Assembly (NCBI GenBank): GCA_001780035.1
Contig: MFEY01000004.1
Coordinates: 10,399 to 74,398, forward strand
Length of the DNA stretch: 64,000 bases
Reading direction: 5' to 3'
Source: Candidatus Doudnabacteria bacterium RIFCSPHIGHO2_12_FULL_48_16
Lineage (GTDB): Bacteria > Patescibacteriota > Doudnabacteria > UBA920 > O2-02-FULL-48-8
Part shown: piece by piece, positions 5,541-53,343 of the stretch
Layout: every line of letters starts with the position of its first letter
Position numbering within the stretch: position 1 is the first letter of the stretch
The notes under the pieces: generated by a model
Seen by the model: only the letters and a program-made list of their open reading frames with translations
Databases searched by the model: none
Told to the model about the DNA's origin: nothing
Made by a program: the position numbers and the translations under genes

Positions 5541-6545
5541 TCACTCTATTTTACCCGAAAGCAAGTCCTTGGCCAGGGCCCACATTCCCCAATCATTATG
5601 CTGTTTGGCCAGCCAATACCACCATTCCACTCCCCAAAGATAATTGTCATGAAACCCAGCGGCTTTCGCATATTCGATATTCTCGCGGAAGACCTTGGGA
5701 TTCATAAGAGCCATCTGAGTATTAAGGTCAATTTTGCTGACTGAGTCCGAAAGCCAAGGCTCGGCCTGCAACTCCACGCCGATCAGATTGCGCATGGGCG
5801 TAAAAGTTTGAACGACCCCGGCCTTGATTCGAAAAAATGCCGGCGGCAGAGGGTAGCGAAAATATCCGGTAAAATCATTGCGGACCACCCGATACATAGT
5901 TGTTCCAAACAAGTCCGCCCCGGTGGTTGCGGTTGGGAGCCAACGGCCAAACTCCCCGCTATCGGCCACCATAACGGGCCGGCTATCCAATGATTTCACC
6001 AAAGCTATTTCTTCTTTCAAAAAATCCCGGTTGGCTTTTGGGCACATTTCGCCAAATCCAAACAATGGTTCATTCTGAACTTGCCAAATTTTAACCGCTT
6101 CAAAAGATTTAAAATGATTAATGGCCGCAACGACCATTTCAAGCTCAGCATTCTGCTGCTCAAATTCCGATAAGTCCCTGGCCCACGAAGGGACGTGGCA
6201 CTCGGGCCAACGGGGTTGTTTTTTACCGACGACCAAAATGACTTCGGTATCATATTGTCGGGCTAAATTTAAAAAATCATCAATTTCGGCAAAATCATAG
6301 GTGCCTCGCTGGCGTTCGATCTGGTTCCAATAGGCACTAAGGCGAATTTTGTCCGGTTTTAAATCGGACAAGATATCCAAATACAGCTGCCGAGGATCGA
6401 ATCCCAGTTCCCTAGCCCGGGATTGAGAAAAATTCAGGCCCCAGCTAAACTCAGTAGCCGGTTGAAATTGATGATAGAAAAAAATCCCAGCCGCCAGGAA
6501 AACTAAAACGATAAAACCTGATAATTTTAAATACTTATGCTTCAT
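5541..6545 (-). CDS. Membrane-anchored glycoside hydrolase, clan GH-A (GH5-like) TIM barrel
   Basis: N-terminal TM, QVQNEP catalytic-acid-type motif, W/Y-rich barrel. Confidence 0.55.
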   Translation of the reverse strand: MKHKYLKLSGFIVLVFLAAGIFFYHQFQPATEFSWGLNFSQSRARELGFDPRQLYLDILSDLKPDKIRLSAYWNQIERQRGTYDFAEIDDFLNLARQYDTEVILVVGKKQPRWPECHVPSWARDLSEFEQQNAELEMVVAAINHFKSFEAVKIWQVQNEPLFGFGEMCPKANRDFLKEEIALVKSLDSRPVMVADSGEFGRWLPTATTGADLFGTTMYRVVRNDFTGYFRYPLPPAFFRIKAGVVQTFTPMRNLIGVELQAEPWLSDSVSKIDLNTQMALMNPKVFRENIEYAKAAGFHDNYLWGVEWWYWLAKQHNDWGMWALAKDLLSGKIE

Positions 6546-6651
6546 CCCGTTAGAAATAGTGATTAGTTAATAATTAGAATCTTTATACTGGAACCCGTTC
6601 AGTTCTATTTTGGTCATAAATCAAACTACGTAAAATTTCTAACGGGACTCA
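6546..6651 (-). repeat. Inverted-repeat element copy a (CCCGTTAGAAAT...ATTTCTAACGGG). It fills the gap between the transporter stop and the GH5 ATG
   Basis: The first 26 nt are identical to copy b at 52458. The arm abuts the ATG. Confidence 0.7.
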
Positions 6652-42733: not shown

Positions 42734-43318
42734 TTAGACACCCAAAACAAATCTGACAAACCGGCGCACTTGGATATTTTCGCCGAGCTTACCGACTTTT
42801 TCGGCGACCAGATCTTTAACTTTTTTGTCTGGCTCACGCACGTATGGCTGATCCAGCAGGCAAACCTGTTCGTAATATTTTTCCAGCTTGCCGGCCATAA
42901 TTTGCTCCTGCATATTCGCCGGCTTGTCCTTGATTTGTTCCGCGTAAATCTGCTTTTCATTATCAATCGCGTTGGCTGGCACTTCTTCGCGCGAAACATA
43001 CAGTGGCGAAGCTGCCGCAATATGGAGGGCAATTTCATTGCCCAATTCTTTAAATTCCTGATTGCGGGCCACGAAGTCCGTTTCGCAGTTAAGCTCCAGC
43101 AGCACCCCGACCTTATCGCCGGCGTGGATATACGAGGTTATAATTCCTTCTTTCGCCGAGCGTTCAGCTTTTTTGGCCAGGGACGCGTGGCCTTTCTTAC
43201 GCAAATAAACCACGGCGTCCTGAAAACTGGCTGATTCCTGGAGGGCTTTTTTGGCGTCCATCATTCCGGCGCCGGTCTGGTCCCGCAATTTTTTGATTTC
43301 ATCTGGTGTAATATTCAT
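42734..43318 (-). CDS. tsf: Elongation factor Ts
   Basis: N-terminal UBA-like IKKLRDQTGAGMMDAKKAL. Confidence 0.9.
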   Translation of the reverse strand: MNITPDEIKKLRDQTGAGMMDAKKALQESASFQDAVVYLRKKGHASLAKKAERSAKEGIITSYIHAGDKVGVLLELNCETDFVARNQEFKELGNEIALHIAAASPLYVSREEVPANAIDNEKQIYAEQIKDKPANMQEQIMAGKLEKYYEQVCLLDQPYVREPDKKVKDLVAEKVGKLGENIQVRRFVRFVLGV

Positions 43319-43365: not shown

Positions 43366-44097
43366 CTATTTCGCGACCGCTGCGGCTTCGGTCTGCGTGA
43401 TCATGTTCTGAGACAGCTGAACCCGACCTTCATTGATCGCCTCAGCCATAATGTGCGCCATAAAGCTGATAACCTTAATTGCATCATCGTTGGACGGGAT
43501 CATGTAATCGATTTTGGTCGGGTCGGAATTGGTATCCACGATTCCGATCACTTTGACTTTGCTCTGGCGCGATTCTTCCACCGGAATATGGTCATATTTG
43601 GCGTCAAGAACGAAAATTGCGTCCGGCAGCTTTTTCATGTCTTTGATCCCGGAAAAAAATGTTTTCATTTTTTCCACTTCTCGGGCAATCATCAGCTGTT
43701 CTTTCTTTGTGTATTTTTTGATCTCGCCGTCTGCGATCATTTTTTCATATCGGTCCATTTTTTTGATCGTTCGCTGGATCGTCCGGAAGTTGGTAAATGT
43801 CCCGCCTAGCCAGCGTGTGACCACGTAGGGCATGCCGCAGGATTCGGCGGCTTTGCGAACGTCTTCTTTGGCTTGCCGCTTGGTACCCACGAATAAGATT
43901 GTTCCACCGGCACTGGCTGTGACCTTGGCAAAATTCAAAGCTTCCAACAATTTTTGCTTGGTTTTTTCCAAATCAAAAATATGGATGCTGTTGCGGGTGG
44001 TAAAGATAAAGGGAGCCATTTTGGGATTCCACAACGATTTCTTGTGTCCAAAATGCACGCCCGCCTTTAACATCTCCATCAAGGTGATGTTGCGCAT
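43366..44097 (-). CDS. rpsB: Ribosomal protein S2
   Basis: LKAGVHFGHKKSLWNPKM. Confidence 0.9.
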   Translation of the reverse strand: MRNITLMEMLKAGVHFGHKKSLWNPKMAPFIFTTRNSIHIFDLEKTKQKLLEALNFAKVTASAGGTILFVGTKRQAKEDVRKAAESCGMPYVVTRWLGGTFTNFRTIQRTIKKMDRYEKMIADGEIKKYTKKEQLMIAREVEKMKTFFSGIKDMKKLPDAIFVLDAKYDHIPVEESRQSKVKVIGIVDTNSDPTKIDYMIPSNDDAIKVISFMAHIMAEAINEGRVQLSQNMITQTEAAAVAK

Positions 44098-44099
44098 AA

Positions 44100-44890
44100 A
44101 CTATAAGTTCCTTTCTTCGGCTACTTTCGTCATCTGATTGTCGGATTTCCACGGTTCATTGTCTTGATCCGTAAAAACAGGCCCGAAACCATCAGCCACC
44201 GCCTTAGCGGGGTCCCGCCTACTATTTAGACCAATAGCAGTGGCGGGAAAAGTATGAATGATTAATAGCCAAACGAGTTTAACATAAAACCGTCCGGAAA
44301 GCAAGACAGGCAAGAAAAAAGAGGCGCCAAACGGGGAGCCTCGAACGCTAAGGGGGGTGACCAGGCTCGCAGAATCGCTACGAACCAAGGCGGAGTCGGT
44401 GGCAGCGCCCGGTGAGTCAAAACGCGTTGACCCAGTCACTCCCCCTCGTTTCCGTTGTTTCCGGCCCTGAATGTGTTCGTGTAAGTTTTGTCTTCACCTG
44501 TTATGAAGCCTTACAAGAACAGTCAGCCAGTCAGTGTGTCACATCACCGCCGGTTTTTTGACCTTCCGCAACGGAAATTTAATTCCCTCTTTATAATTCG
44601 GGTAAGCCGGACCAAAGTTAGCTAGGCGCTCCCAAAGCGCCCCGGCCCACTCCGGTCCGGCTCCTCACTTGCCGATCCTTCCCCTCCAATGGTGCGTCAA
44701 AACAGCATCAAGCTCTCCGGCTGCAAAAAATTGCCGGGGCATCAGATAACTGCTCTGAAACAGCTGTGTCGAAGCTGAGAACCCTAACAGCTGTTTTTTC
44801 CTCGCCGAGGACCGAACAAGATCGTAAGTAAGCACACCCTAACAATTTTTGGCCGGACTGTCAATCCCGCTTGACCGGATCGGGTTTTTG
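44100..44890. other. Roughly 0.8 kb GC-rich noncoding region with many stable nested hairpins; candidate structured RNA of unknown class
   Basis: No credible ORF in any frame. GC visibly above the local background. Plus-strand intrinsic terminator at 44758-44810. Confidence 0.35.
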
Positions 44891-44914
44891 TGCTAGAATT
44901 TTTGAGCTATGAAT

Positions 44915-45020
44915 CCCATTAGAAATTCGAATGCATTCAAACTACTGCATAAGAATTATAACCAGCGGGGAATAATACAAGCTAAGCCAATTTACTAACT
45001 AATCAAAATTTCTAAACGGG
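44915..45020 (+). repeat. Inverted-repeat element copy d (CCCATTAGAAAT...AAATTTCTAAACGGG) forming the rpmE 5' UTR and abutting the ATG
   Basis: -10 TGCTAGAAT at 44891. Shares the TAACTAATCA subterminal segment with copies a and b. Confidence 0.6.
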
Positions 45021-45269
45021 ATGAAAAAAGACTTACACCCCCAATATTTTACCAACGCGAAGATTGTTTGCGCCTGCGGCAATACCTTTGTTACCGGCTC
45101 TACCAAGCAAGAGCTGCATGTTGAAATTTGCGCCAACTGCCATCCGTTCTACACCGGCAAACAAAACCTGATCGACGCTGCGGGGACGATTGATAAATTC
45201 AAGAAAAAAGCGGCCAAGAGCACGGAACTGAAAGCCAAGAAAATTTCTAAAAAACTCCAAGCCGCTTAA
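45021..45269 (+). CDS. rpmE: Ribosomal protein L31
   Basis: MKKDLHPQY...CxCG...CxxCHPFYTG. Confidence 0.9.
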
Positions 45270-45409: not shown

Positions 45410-46465
45410 ATGGAAATCAACTACCTACCGCTTAAAAAAGAATCCGAAGAGATCCTGGAGAAGCTCTCCAATACTACGGATTCGCAAGAACTCGCGAAAC
45501 TCGGCCGGCGCCAAGCCGAGCTTTTGCCATTGGTCAATAAAATCGACCGGATCGAAAAGATTAAAATCGAAATCGCCGAACATGAAAAGCTCGTGGCCGA
45601 AAAATCAGAGCTGGCTGAGATGGCTCTCGCTGAACTCCCGGCCCTGCAATCCGAACTGGATGAGCTGTTGGAATATTTACGGATCGCCATGCTGCCGAGG
45701 GATCCGTATGACGACAAAAATATTGTTATGGAAATCCGGGCCGGGGCCGGGGGTGACGAAGCGGGATTGTTTGCCAGCGAGCTGTTCCGCATGTATTCCA
45801 AATATGCCGAAAGGCTCAAATACAAAACCGTCATCGTGGCCGCCAGCCGCACCTCCATCGGCGGCTACAAAGAAGTGATTTTTGAAATTCTGGGCCAAGG
45901 CGCTTATTCCAAATTTAAATATGAATCCGGAGTCCACCGGGTCCAGCGGGTGCCGGAAACCGAAAAAGCCGGCCGCGTTCACACGTCGACAATCACAGTG
46001 GCGGTCATGCCGGTGATTGAGGAAGTCGACTTCAAAATTGATCCCAAAGATATAAAAATGGAGGCCACGACGGCTTCCGGGCATGGCGGGCAATCGGTCA
46101 ACACCACTTATTCCGCCGTCCGCATGACCCATTTGCCGACCGGAATTATGGTCGTCATGCAGGATGAGCGCAGCCAAGCCCAAAACCGGGAAAAAGCCAT
46201 GATGGTTTTGCGCGCACGTGTCATGGCTCTGGAAGAAGAGCGCAAACGCAAGGAGCTGAGCGACAAACGCAAATCCCAGATCGGCACCGGCGACCGGTCA
46301 GAAAAAATCCGAACTTACAACTTTCCCCAGGACCGCATCACCGACCATCGGATCAACCAAAACTGGAGCCAGATCCAAACTATTCTCGATGGCGGCATGG
46401 GTCCAATCACCGAAGCCATGATTGCGGAGGATCAGCGCCGGCAACTCGAAAATCTGAACAAATGA
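45410..46465 (+). CDS. prfA: Peptide chain release factor 1
   Basis: GGQ motif [11 protein letters not shown]; PET tripeptide in the PxT position. Confidence 0.85.
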
Positions 46466-47352
46466 CCATTCGACAAGCATTAAACTCCGCCACTAGGATC
46501 CTTAAACGCAAAAGCACTTCCCCATCTTTGGATGCCGAGGTGCTTTTGGCATACGTGCTTAAAAAACCCAAAACAGACATTTTTGTCCGTATGGACAATT
46601 TTGTCTACAAGCGAGATCGACAAAAATTTTTAGCACTAATCAAGAAACGTTCGCAAGGCTGGCCGGTCGCTTATTTAACCCATGAAAAAGAATTTTTCGG
46701 CTTGAAATTCTACGTCGATAAAAACGTGCTGATCCCCCGCCCGGAAACCGAAGGGCTGGTTGATCTGGTTCTCGAAAAATTAAAAATTGTAAATTATAAA
46801 TTAAAAATCTTGGACATTGGGACTGGCTCGGGATGCATTATTGTTAGTTTAGCCAAGTCTTTGCGCAATGCTGAACTTGTTTCAGCATCCCAACCAAGAG
46901 ATCCTGAAATAAATTCAGAATTTCGATACTTTGCTTCTGACATCTCCTCTGCCGCTCTTAAAATTGCTCGCAAAAATGCCCGCCGGCACAAGGTTAAAGT
47001 TAACTTTAAAAAATCAAATCTTTTATCCGCATGGAAAAATCAACGATTTGACGTCATCGTCGCCAATCTTCCCTATCTGGCCAAAGAAACTGACCCCAGC
47101 ACCAAATTTGAACCTAAAAAAGCTCTAATCGCAAAAAACCACGGATTGGGCTTAATTGCAAAACTGCTCCAACAAATCTCAACGCTCAGCGCTCCTCCCT
47201 CAGCGCTCTTTCTAGAAATTGGCCACGACCAGGGGGCCAAAATAAAAAAATTGGCAGCCAAATGGCTGCCAAGCTTTGATACAAAAATATTCAGAGATAT
47301 GTCGGGAAAAAATCGCTATGCGATCCTGAACGCCCCAGACCTTATTCTTTAG
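46462..47352 (+). CDS. prmC: Release factor glutamine methyltransferase (HemK)
   Basis: GTGSGCI SAM motif and NLPY (NPPY-type) motif. 4-nt overlap with prfA. Confidence 0.8.
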
Positions 47353-51356: not shown

Positions 51357-52457
51357 TCAGTCAAACCTGACCGCCCGTTGCCGCGCAATCACGCTTTGCA
51401 CCAGGCCCAAAGCGAGCATAGTGGTAATGAGCGAGCTGCCGCCATAACTGAGCAGCGGCAATGGAATGCCGGTCACTGGCATCAAACCGACATTCATCCC
51501 AATGTTGATTAAAAACTGGATCAAGAGCATAAAAAATATCCCCAGGGTCAGATACATCCCAAAGTTATCGCGGGCCAGCTTGCAGGCTTTAATGATTCGG
51601 GCAAACATGACGCCAAACATCGTTAAAATAAACAAGCTGCCGACCAGGCCCAATTCTTCAGCCGTGGAAGCAAAAATGAAGTCAGTTTGCCGCTCCGGCA
51701 AAAACTTAAGCTGGGATTGCAGGCCGCGGCCGACTCCCCGGCCGGTCATGGAGCCTGACCCGACCGCGATGATTGATTGAATGACATTGTAGCCCCGGCC
51801 GCGGGGATCGGCTTGCGGGTCCAAAAACGTATAGATCCGGTTTTTCTGGTAATCATGCAGCACAAAAAACCAGCCGAACACGCCCAAGACCACGGCGATC
51901 AAAGCCAATATGGCCAGATGTTTTTTGTTCATTCTGGAAAACAGCAACATGCAAAGCCAGGTCAAAAATAGGACCAATGAGGTCCCCAAGTCCGGCTCAA
52001 TTAAAATCAGGCCGGCCGGGACAGCGACGTATACGGCGGAGAGCAGGACATACCAGAGACTCTTAATCTTTTCGCCTGATTGATCCAGGAATTTGGCCAT
52101 AATGATGACCATAAACAGCTTGGCAAATTCCGCCGGCTGCAAACGGAAAATCCAGAGGTCAATCCAGCGAGTCGAGCCCTGAATGTTTCGGCCGAATAGC
52201 CAGACCGCGATCAGCAGCAAAACCGTAATTATATACAAAACTCCCGTGGTTTTTTTTAGCTTGCGATAATCAAAAAACGCCACGGCAAACAAAGCCACAA
52301 AACCCAGGACGGCGTAAACCGACTGGCGACCGAGCAAATTGGTTGGGCTATTGAGTGTTGTGGAATAAATCATCAACAAACCCAAAACGAGCAGCAGAGA
52401 ACTGCTGCTGAAAATATAAAGATCAAAGTATTTGAATCCCGAGAGCCAATTTCTCAT
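51357..52457 (-). CDS. ftsW: SEDS family peptidoglycan polymerase FtsW/RodA
   Basis: 10 TM; SIIAVGSGSMTGRGVGRG and FIFASTAEELG motifs. Confidence 0.85.
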   Translation of the reverse strand: MRNWLSGFKYFDLYIFSSSSLLLVLGLLMIYSTTLNSPTNLLGRQSVYAVLGFVALFAVAFFDYRKLKKTTGVLYIITVLLLIAVWLFGRNIQGSTRWIDLWIFRLQPAEFAKLFMVIIMAKFLDQSGEKIKSLWYVLLSAVYVAVPAGLILIEPDLGTSLVLFLTWLCMLLFSRMNKKHLAILALIAVVLGVFGWFFVLHDYQKNRIYTFLDPQADPRGRGYNVIQSIIAVGSGSMTGRGVGRGLQSQLKFLPERQTDFIFASTAEELGLVGSLFILTMFGVMFARIIKACKLARDNFGMYLTLGIFFMLLIQFLINIGMNVGLMPVTGIPLPLLSYGGSSLITTMLALGLVQSVIARQRAVRFD

Positions 52458-52524
52458 CCCGTTAGAAATAGTGATTAGTTAATTTATATTATTTTTACAA
52501 TCAACGCAGAATTTCTAACGGGAC
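52458..52524 (-). repeat. Inverted-repeat element copy b; fills the gap between the stop of gene 52525-53343 and the ftsW ATG
   Basis: TGA-GTCCCGTTAGAAAT...TAACTAATCACTATTTCTAACGGG-ATG. Confidence 0.7.
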
Positions 52525-53343
52525 TCATTGCTGGTCAAAAGGCGATATGCCCGCATCGGTTGATAAAATATTACGGTCAAAAATATTTATTTCCGGGACA
52601 ATCTCAGCCCGCACTGCGCCGGTAACCGGGCTGGCCCAAACATACTGGAAGGTCCGCGTTTCGCCGGACCGGACCTGATTTAGATAAGTGAAATTCACTC
52701 CCACCACTTCATTTTTGGCATTATAAAGCGCCACTGGCAGATTGATTTGATTGATGGTAAACGCGCTCAGGTTCCGGATTCCCGCTGAAACCAAGGTCGC
52801 ATCATTGCCGGTTTTAAAACTGACGCGCTCCAATTCAACGGTCAGACTCAGTGCCGGCTTGCGCAAGAACTCCGTGGCCTCCAAAGTTACCTGTATGGTC
52901 TCCGGTTTCTGTTGGGAGGTGAAACGAGAAAACACGACCAGTTTTTCCGAAGCCGGGAGAATAAAAACTGCACCGGCAATCCGGTTGATCAAAGTGCCCC
53001 CCAAGGTTTTGAATTCCACGGTGTAACGCTGGGCGGGAGTGCCCCATTCCAAATTGACGTTTTTGATCCTAATATATCCGGAGTAAGCGTTCTGGCCGAG
53101 GCTGAAAATTTTCTGATCCATAACCGAGAGCGGCACGGTGACGGCTTCGGTGTAAATCACCTGTGGCGGATGATAACTGCTCACGATTGCCCGCGTCAAC
53201 AAAAATTTGGCCGTATAAAACATCGGAATGATAGCAACAATCGTGATGATCAGGGCATACCACCATCCCCGGCCGGTTTCGGTCAAAAGATCGCCGGCAA
53301 TCAACCCCCATTCTTGCAACCGTTCATTTTTATTTAAAGCCAT
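52525..53343 (-). CDS. N-terminally anchored hypothetical protein (beta-rich periplasmic domain)
   Basis: Single TM, no recognised domain. Confidence 0.45.
   Translation of the reverse strand: MALNKNERLQEWGLIAGDLLTETGRGWWYALIITIVAIIPMFYTAKFLLTRAIVSSYHPPQVIYTEAVTVPLSVMDQKIFSLGQNAYSGYIRIKNVNLEWGTPAQRYTVEFKTLGGTLINRIAGAVFILPASEKLVVFSRFTSQQKPETIQVTLEATEFLRKPALSLTVELERVSFKTGNDATLVSAGIRNLSAFTINQINLPVALYNAKNEVVGVNFTYLNQVRSGETRTFQYVWASPVTGAVRAEIVPEINIFDRNILSTDAGISPFDQQ

Follow-up and report, generated by a model that had tools for sequence, protein, structure and literature searches.

We analyzed a 64,000-nt stretch of contig MFEY01000004.1 from Candidatus Doudnabacteria bacterium RIFCSPHIGHO2_12_FULL_48_16 (hereafter, the window), in which an initial annotation had singled out positions 44100-44890 as a single GC-rich region, free of open reading frames (ORFs), upstream of the ribosomal protein S2 gene rpsB. 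Based on the ORF map and Pfam labels, this flagged region falls inside a 923-nt spacer (44098-45020) between two divergent operons, rpsB-tsf on the minus strand and rpmE-prfA-prmC on the plus strand. Our analyses suggest, with a probability of roughly 0.6, that the region is a mosaic rather than one RNA, consisting of the rpsB promoter and leader, a non-coding unit that we refer to as unit X, and the rpmE promoter. The spacer holds at least two to three separate functional parts, with three promoter-like sites and a terminator hairpin on each strand; the idea of one entity "packed with nested hairpins" gives way to separate promoters, terminators, and other parts. Here, we describe the conserved leader and its kink-turn-like core, then unit X and the variable slot in which it lies, and finally weigh the alternatives and compare the parts with known systems.

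A conserved and covarying leader upstream of rpsB

The rpsB-proximal part of the spacer comprises the following features:

44276-44304, minus strand: rpsB promoter, with -35 TTGCTT (44304-44299), a 17-nt spacer, and extended -10 TGtTAAACT (44284-44276)
44098-44269, minus strand: rpsB 5' untranslated region (5'UTR) leader, ~172 nt, between the conserved promoter and the rpsB ATG
44196-44248, minus strand: GC-rich double hairpin insert, CCCGCC...GGCGGG and CCCCGC...GCGGUGG, species-specific

To follow these features across relatives, we drew on three kinds of searches. RpsB-based scans of genome and metagenome collections gave only two close relatives, L001 (82% identity) and L081 (84%), while PrfA homologs at 80-86% identity led to six more syntenic loci (L167, L169, L170, L175, L176, and L177). 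Exact-protein look-ups found the same species in several samples, with 0-3 single-nucleotide polymorphisms (SNPs) in the spacer; ENA assemblies ERZ27254767, ERZ28563825, ERZ4903125, and ERZ28563660 also contain the contig. The L001 contig (DASPNG010000086.1; protein P0104) is labelled "Candidatus Binatia bacterium," but its RpsB and PrfA are 82% and 73% identical to those of the window and the rpsB leader is present there as well; the contig has probably been given a wrong label or placed in a wrong bin.

The rpsB promoter and 5'UTR align across all eight of these loci, and the 5'UTR is kept in nine Doudnabacteria loci. The promoter pattern CTTGC...N17...TG-N-TAAaCT/TAGAAT is retained in all aligned Doudnabacteria relatives; our extended -10 scan recovered the window's promoter, and homologous promoters were called in L167, L169, L170, L176, and L177. 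Transcription of rpsB is predicted to start near 44269. In the alignments, the conserved 5'UTR starts with UAUUAAUCAU, and it carries a Shine-Dalgarno (SD)-like AAAGGAA at 44114-44108, ahead of the rpsB ATG at 44097. DNA similarity to the relatives covers rpsB, continues from 44098 to ~44310 with a gap at 44196-44253, and resumes at ~44870-44915 and in rpmE. Alignments and BLAST show that the double hairpin insert is missing from all eight loci.

The leader folds (z = -4.4) into a long irregular stem made of helix P1, an internal loop resembling a kink-turn (K-turn), and a C-stem that runs into P2, followed by P2b and by P3, which carries the conserved loop AUCAAGACAAUGAA. In this species only, the double hairpin insert splits the 5' strand of P1. 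Since the automatic structure from RNAalifold lacked the outer helix, we wrote out P1, P2, P2b, and P3 by hand and then tested this structure on the alignment. In the six-sequence alignment A4, 95% of cells were paired and 10 of 21 pairs showed compensatory changes; none of 500 column shuffles attained the observed score, and sliding the pairing partners lowered the paired fraction to 29-60%. Between the window and a second strain (L162/L166), there are only four differences over 6.1 kb, three of which fall in leader hairpin P3 (44149, 44150, and 44162); two of these turn U-G pairs into U-A pairs, and the third lies in the conserved loop.

A model built from A4 (R1) matches directly upstream of rpsB in five further, more distant loci, including one labelled Patescibacteria (L014), and a later model (R2), built partly from weak R1 matches, adds two loci labelled Clostridia, L080 (Pelotomaculum) and L043. 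The models match once in the 64-kb window and also in L002, L014, L025, L082, L085, L080, and L043; in ~1.14 Mb of fetched DNA that includes the whole window, every match lies immediately upstream of rpsB. Thus, the proposal of an unclassified structured RNA holds for the rpsB-proximal ~170 nt, as a conserved and covarying 5'UTR, and not for the rest of the 0.8 kb: comparison with homologous intergenic regions shows the leader conserved and covarying, while 44312-44870 has no match in the relatives (blastn with word size 7; tblastx).

A kink-turn-like core near the ribosome binding site

The core of the leader, where P1 meets the C-stem, is made up of the following strands:

44190-44254, minus strand: 5' strand of the core, with P1 UACUUU (44254-44249) plus C 44195, then U (44194), G-A (44193-44192), and C-stem U-G (44191-44190)
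44122-44136, minus strand: 3' (bulged) strand of the core, with C-A (44136-44135), a G-A-U bulge (44134-44132), G-A (44131-44130), and C (44129)
44128-44122, minus strand: 3' strand of P1, GAAAGUA

In the window, C44195-U-G-A44192 on one strand lies opposite G44134-A-U-G-A-C44129, and P1 is formed by 44254-44249 plus 44195, paired with 44128-44122. All members of the leader share this arrangement, with P1-N-G-A-helix on the 5' strand and helix-R-A-U-G-A-N-P1' on the 3' strand; tandem GA/GA and a 3-nt bulge between two helices are the sequence signature of a K-turn. In an alignment of the core (A9, 14 sequences), the four G/A positions and the middle A of the bulge are invariant, the bulge being R-A-U or, in two sequences, R-A-C. 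All 10 flanking pairs show compensatory changes (three of three in the C-helix and seven of seven in the NC-helix/P1), with 96.9% of cells paired. Given the tandem GA and the 3-nt bulge, the core looks like a K-turn whose geometry is predicted from sequence. Its sequence is also reminiscent of box C/D (RUGA...CUGA). From the end of the outer helix, it is ~8 nt to the SD-like AAAGGAA and ~24 nt to the ATG.

By inspection, the GA/GA pattern is also present in the two Clostridia-labelled loci. In L080 (3884-4009, Pelotomaculum sp.) and L043 (3885-4009, Eubacteriales), the same GA/GA kink-turn-like stem lies between rpsB and an upstream extended -10 promoter, TGTGgTAAAAT, and the leader of neither locus matches an Rfam family. 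Because the stem is found in these two loci, the motif may be widespread in Firmicutes as well as in the Candidate Phyla Radiation (CPR).

In Escherichia coli, excess S2 represses rpsB-tsf through the rpsB 5'UTR (PMC10931766; PMC3616713). By analogy, the leader described here is probably an S2 autoregulatory leader, in which excess S2 would bind the leader and repress translation of rpsB-tsf, with the K-turn-bearing stem near the SD serving as the protein site. Alternatively, the ligand could be another K-turn-binding protein, or the kink might merely organize the tertiary fold.

Unit X, an orphan non-coding unit

Upstream of the rpsB promoter, the central part of the spacer is organized as follows:

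44312-44862, minus strand: unit X, non-coding, with a promoter-like site, ~515 nt of hairpin-rich sequence, and an intrinsic terminator
44836-44862, minus strand: X promoter-like site, with a perfect -35 TTGACA (44862-44857), a 17-nt spacer, and extended -10 TGtTAGGGT (44844-44836)
44758-44803, plus strand only: terminator-like hairpin, AAACAGCUGU-(19 nt)-ACAGCUGUUU then a U-tract (inverted repeat I7, fold)
44605-44662, either strand: 58-nt near-perfect hairpin, AGCCGGACC...GGUCCGGCU
44449-44577, minus strand: domain closed by a perfect 9-bp helix, UUUCCGUUG / CAACGGAAA (inverted repeat I13, global fold)
44352-44445, minus strand: four-way junction, cloverleaf-like but not a tRNA, closed by GGGGGGaGUGAC / GUCACcCCCCC
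44315-44341, minus strand: X intrinsic terminator, GAGGCuCC-CCGUUU-GGcGCCUC then UUUUUU, with a 5+2 bp stem

X shows no sign of coding capacity. Scanning codon log-odds, with 27 of the contig's own genes as the training set, revealed no coding signal in six frames across 44140-45000, with a maximum of ~4 bits per 40 codons compared to 5-29 in rpsB, rpmE, and prfA. Pfam searches of 10 frame segments returned nothing credible (a single sub-threshold Peptidase_C26, E = 0.011), and a query joining all 13 six-frame segments that run for at least 30 aa without a stop gave no match at E<=1 among 5.8 billion proteins. These results bear out the initial view that the region has no credible ORF; the one ORF that had been listed (44101-44439, 112 aa), already doubted there, overlaps the rpsB promoter and leader. 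Known RNAs are likewise lacking: at the gathering threshold, Rfam finds only five tRNAs in the whole window, all outside the flagged region, where no known family is matched; at E<=10, three sub-windows of the flagged region gave nothing meaningful; and ARAGORN called no tRNA or transfer-messenger RNA (tmRNA) there.

The predicted transcript of X would start at ~44829, based on the extended -10 scan, and end at 44315, for a length of ~515 nt. Its promoter-like site and the rpmE promoter stand back to back, with 8 nt separating the site from the rpmE -35 box, and minus-strand promoters occupy the equivalent position beside the rpmE promoter in L167, L169, L176, and L177. The -10 element TGTTAGGGT (minus strand, 44836-44844) is duplicated 55 nt downstream at 44781-44789, inside the 44758-44803 hairpin and without a -35 box. 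At the other end, sequence and fold place the X terminator just upstream of the rpsB promoter; an analogous terminator lies just before the rpsB promoter in L169, and in L167 a minus-strand terminator closes a non-coding unit, with a convergent deaminase gene between it and the rpsB promoter. It follows directly from this anatomy that the X terminator would shield the rpsB promoter and leader from upstream read-through.

The minus strand of 44312-44829 folds with z = -4.5, compared to -0.6 to -3.2 in five coding controls of equal length. The left half is strand-asymmetric (z = -4.4 on the minus strand and -0.6 on the plus strand), while the right third is ambiguous and slightly favors the plus strand. 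Within the left half, the minus strand of 44308-44450 folds at -59.7 kcal/mol (z = -3.0), and a sliding-window scan over the four-way junction gives z = -3.4 on the minus strand versus +0.2 on the plus strand; the junction has no match to ARAGORN or Rfam tRNA models. The perfect stems reported in the initial annotation are real, as AGCCGGACC/GGUCCGGCU does enclose GGCGCU/AGCGCC at 44605-44662. The reported plus-strand terminator stands in part: the 44758-44803 hairpin has a T6 tract and a stem that is a perfect 10-bp inverted repeat (44758-44767 / 44787-44796), but its 19-nt loop is atypical, and for this reason the terminator scan did not call it. This hairpin may stop a possible plus-strand small RNA (sRNA) from ~44604, or insulate before the rpmE promoter. 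The GC content, described as clearly above background, is only weakly so, at ~1 standard deviation (SD) over the contig mean: 0.517 for the flagged span and 0.541 for the core (44312-44829), versus a contig mean of 0.488 (SD 0.051), such that ~13% of equal-sized windows have as high a GC content.

X has no DNA similarity in seven syntenic relatives, other fetched loci, or phage or plasmid collections, and no further copy in the window. Searches of X against the cargo of the relatives (deaminase, amidase, helix-turn-helix [HTH] protein, and small ORFs) by tblastn/tblastx were negative. In exact-pattern scans of IMG/VR, three 17-mer matches extend to 18-19 nt or not at all and a second pattern gave zero matches; we judged the 17-mer matches to be due to chance. 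X is therefore an orphan non-coding unit rather than a conserved RNA family, given that there is neither an Rfam match nor conservation in seven relatives with the flanking genes. Of what the initial annotation had named as telling against its RNA, the central 0.55 kb shows half: it matches no Rfam family, yet it is not conserved in the seven relatives. The closest step down in PrfA is the 93%-identical P0002, which has no contig on record, and the next relative, at 86%, already lacks X.

Three candidate roles or origins for X were examined and rejected. Base-pairing between X and the leader insert (inverted repeats I5 and I10) gave a duplex energy that was not significant, with 6% of shuffles as good. 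X is not a riboswitch for rpsB, because it lies upstream of the conserved rpsB promoter and is missing in relatives. Finally, with no second copy in the window and no phage or plasmid match, X was rejected as a repeat or mobile element.

A variable slot between the two promoters

In seven relatives or loci, the slot between the rpsB and rpmE promoters holds different cargo, or none:

L175: empty, with the two promoters 8 nt apart
L176: split geranylgeranyl-reductase (GGR) gene
L177: 155-aa ORF
L170: 74-aa ORF
L169: 96-aa HTH protein and Amidase_2 gene, with a terminator just before the rpsB promoter
L167: cytidine-deaminase gene and a 390-nt non-coding stretch
JGI contig: several genes, one sigma-like

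Because the slot is hypervariable among relatives, X is cargo rather than core. The 390-nt unit of L167 (3150-3582, minus strand) has its own promoter (TTGACT-17-TATATT) and terminator and folds with z = -5, but it is unrelated to X and has no Rfam or ARAGORN match. Its GC content is 0.535, compared to 0.464 for the locus, and its fold includes a long stem interrupted by a symmetric internal loop, CUGGAAGG/CUGGAAGG. In L169 (2440-2481), L176 (3438-3479), and L177 (3624-3665), the rpmE and minus-strand cargo promoters overlap, with their -35 boxes at a fixed 15-nt offset, whereas the window and L167 have the two promoters back to back, not overlapping.

The rpmE promoter and flanking genes

The remaining features of the locus are the rpmE promoter, an inserted element, and the genes on either side:

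44871-44899, plus strand: rpmE promoter, TTGACC, 17-nt spacer, TGcTAGAAT (promoter scan)
44913-45020 (plus strand), ~6546-6650 (minus strand), and ~52458-52527 (minus strand), with a further copy at L171 1-104: miniature inverted-repeat transposable element (MITE)-like copies
42734-43318, minus strand: tsf (ORF map)
43366-44097, minus strand: rpsB (ORF map)
45021-45269, plus strand: rpmE, 82 codons (ORF map)
45410-46465, plus strand: prfA (ORF map)
46462-47352, plus strand: prmC (ORF map)

Pfam labels on identical contigs are consistent with the ORF map. PrfA is 100% identical to a Candidatus Doudnabacteria protein, with proteins under that name or "Patescibacteria group" next in rank.

The rpmE promoter is kept in L167, L169, L170, and L175, where the rpmE ATG follows the -10 box by ~9 nt, making the gene near-leaderless. 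In the window and L171, an AT-rich element of ~105 nt is inserted exactly between the rpmE -10 and the ATG (window 44913-45020); it is lacking at rpmE in the other four. This MITE-like element is 70-110 nt long, with terminal inverted repeats TCCCGTTAGAAAT / ATTTCT(A)AACGGGA and ATGA(A/G) on both flanks. Every copy ends exactly at a start codon, namely those of rpmE, a 334-aa gene (5541-6545), and an FtsW/RodA-like gene (51357-52457), and the apparent target-site duplication regenerates the ATG.

Alternative explanations

A universal RNA gene in disguise was among the initial suggestions, but the searches give no support to a divergent known RNA. The candidates were a highly divergent RNase P RNA, tmRNA, signal recognition particle (SRP) RNA, or 6S RNA that standard models miss. 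None matched in the flagged region at E<=10, with relaxed filters and windows of 300-1300 nt: neither the RNaseP_bact_a/b models (defined by the GGAAAGUCCGG / ACAGAAxCCGGCUUA strands and a long-range P4 helix), nor any model of the tmRNA clan, nor those for SRP and 6S RNA, and ARAGORN was negative as well. This agrees with the earlier failure to find clean matches to RNase P, tmRNA, or SRP by eye. In favor of such an identity, two minus-strand strings, GACAGUCCGGCC (44861-44850) and GGUCCGGCUUAC (44612-44601), resemble the two strands of RNase P P4, and GGGGGAGUGACUGGGUCAAC can be likened to a tmRNA 5' end; we rejected these readings. Of the P4-like strings, the first coincides with the -35 box at the X promoter-like site and so precedes the predicted start, and the second is half of the local 58-nt hairpin. 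In addition, a universal RNA gene would be kept in close relatives, in which this sequence is missing. We consider this identity effectively refuted and its probability negligible.

The nature of X itself allows a wider choice. X is most likely a lineage-specific non-coding transcript; we lean toward this reading because its transcription signals look intact, its fold is strand-specific, and L167 has an analogous unit. Nearly as likely is that X is the leftover of earlier cargo. If X decayed from a former cargo gene or from foreign DNA, it would have no function of its own, and its hairpins, promoter, and terminator would be leftovers. This possible but tentative explanation fits the slots of L169, L170, L176, and L177, which hold coding genes beside a minus-strand promoter-like site abutting the rpmE promoter, as well as the empty slot of L175, the slightly higher GC content of X relative to the contig, which would suit a foreign origin, and the lack of conservation in any relative. 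It is harder to reconcile with the absence of a protein homolog for any six-frame segment, of tblastx matches to the cargo of relatives, and of any residual codon signal, or with the intact promoter-like site and terminator and the strand-specific fold of the left half. Moreover, CPR genomes are compact, and we infer that a 0.5-kb pseudogene eroded past recognition would be expected to be deleted. Could X and the unrelated 390-nt unit of L167 both be fast-evolving structured non-coding RNA (ncRNA) genes, exchangeable as cargo in a CPR hotspot? We regard this as unlikely. Equally structured but functionally conserved, a single large novel ncRNA of ~0.5-0.8 kb, comparable to OLE, GOLLD, and ROOL, would account for the predicted ~515-nt unit with its multi-stem junctions and z of -4.5, for the analogous L167 unit with promoter and terminator in the same slot, and for the lack of Rfam families. 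However, large ncRNA classes rest on conservation and covariation, neither of which is available for X; no homolog exists in relatives even at 81-86% PrfA identity with conserved flanks, and the rpsB-proximal 0.2 kb is separately accounted for as promoter and leader, so that we find a large ncRNA distinctly unlikely. The ambiguous right third and the plus-strand hairpin at 44758-44803 also make room for two small divergent RNA genes, a minus-strand one of ~260 nt (~44570 to 44315) and a plus-strand one of ~200 nt (~44604 to 44803), with back-to-back weak promoters near 44577-44597 and a terminator for each. Terminator-like hairpins on opposite strands at both ends, a perfect TATAAT at 44592-44597 (plus strand) and TTAAAT at 44582-44577 (minus strand), and the switch in fold preference near 44600 from minus on the left to slightly plus on the right are consistent with this layout, in which a C-rich CCUUCCCCUCC would be exposed on the plus-strand RNA. 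Neither candidate promoter has a credible -35 or TG extension, and in this they differ from the three strong promoter-like sites of the spacer; there is also no conservation, and two such genes seem improbable.

Several observations weigh against the mosaic of leader, unit X, and rpmE promoter. S2 is not known as a K-turn binder; S2 as the ligand is proposed purely by analogy, and the K-turn geometry of the leader is inferred from its sequence. Scores under R1 are weak (18-42 bits) for the two Clostridia loci and for the five CPR-like loci that lie furthest away, and some of these weak matches then served to build R2; A9 was extracted by hand, which inflates its contrast with slid controls. 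For X, both the predicted start and the terminator come from pattern matching alone; the -10 TAGGGT fits only three of six consensus bases, and a generic scanner did not call the promoter. The fold z of -4.5 is modestly past coding controls that reach -3.2, and the plus-strand hairpin inside X and the plus preference of its right third fit the two-transcript layout as well. Other copies of X come only from near-identical strains with the identical RpsB or L31, and these have 0 SNPs in X.

Significance and comparison with known systems

In place of a suspected 0.8-kb mystery RNA, the analysis yields a regulatory annotation for one intergenic stretch of a CPR genome, and it demonstrates no new class of large RNA. 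What lasts is the candidate leader of rpsB (S2), which covaries strongly, has a kink-turn-like core, and escapes the Rfam S2-leader models. Its range appears to go beyond Doudnabacteria and to take in other Patescibacteria-like genomes as well as some Clostridia. Binding of the leader by S2 or by a bacterial L7Ae-like protein, if it occurs, would add a mode of RNA-protein recognition to ribosomal autoregulation and open a way into gene regulation in uncultivated CPR. As an orphan insert, X is without demonstrable function on present evidence, and it shows that there is variability even between core ribosomal operons of small genomes; if X were indeed ncRNA cargo, a minimal genome would carry non-coding "accessory genes."

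The slot resembles variable integration hotspots in that one position holds unrelated cargo in each relative (amidase, deaminase, GGR, small ORFs, or nothing). In contrast to such hotspots, no integrase, tRNA, or attachment repeats were seen here, and the cargo spans only 0.2-2.7 kb, with non-coding cargo in two genomes. X also recalls the GC-rich, hairpin-rich orphan intergenic RNAs found in screens of GC-rich intergenic regions (e.g., PMC6429828, PMC11109978), as it is long and non-coding, has stable stems and a terminator, and somewhat exceeds the genomic GC content; those RNAs were accepted only with multiple covarying representatives, of which X has none.

The S2-interacting rpsB leader is represented in Rfam by t44 (RF00127) and rpsB (RF01815) (Aseev et al. 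2008; Fu et al. 2013, PMC3616713). The new leader occupies the same site, the rpsB-tsf 5'UTR, with an extended -10 promoter immediately ahead of it; both are long irregular stems with a closing helix that ends shortly before the SD, and the presumed role, autogenous control of S2 and EF-Ts, is alike. However, neither Rfam model scores on the window or on L080 at E<=10, while an enterobacterial control (L011) scores 53.7 bits with t44 and 23.7 bits with rpsB. The t44 family is marked by a GGU internal loop that forms a pseudoknot with a downstream UAACC-type sequence (PMC3616713). By inspection of A4 and a further alignment (A8), no GGU/ACC pair is conserved, with no dedicated pseudoknot search run, and the invariant GGGCCUG loop has no obvious conserved partner. 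The core of the new leader is instead a GA/GA kink-turn-like loop, with an asymmetry opposite to that of the t44 internal loop. Because distant members share an ACACAC-type 5' context, with GGAGG right after the closing helix, a remote evolutionary link to the t44/rpsB family is conceivable. Altogether, we propose the leader, by analogy, as a new ribosomal-leader candidate that would work like an S2 leader without being a member of the t44/rpsB family.

A K-turn-type internal loop (tandem G-A, 3-nt bulge, a helix on either side) in the 5'UTR of a ribosomal-protein operon is also shared with the L10(L12)4 leader and with those of archaeal L7Ae and yeast L30e, whereas the downstream gene here is rpsB. 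Archaeal L7Ae and yeast L30e autoregulate via K-turns, and S2 is a late-assembling protein. In the L10 leader, it is the K-turn that the protein recognizes (PMC3616713); the Rfam L10_leader model does not match here. Compared to Kt-42, the core of the rpsB leader is closer to the box C/D arrangement (RAUGA / CUGA). On balance, we favor the interpretation that the kink-turn-type rpsB leader belongs to an undescribed class of ribosomal leaders common to Patescibacteria and some Clostridia.

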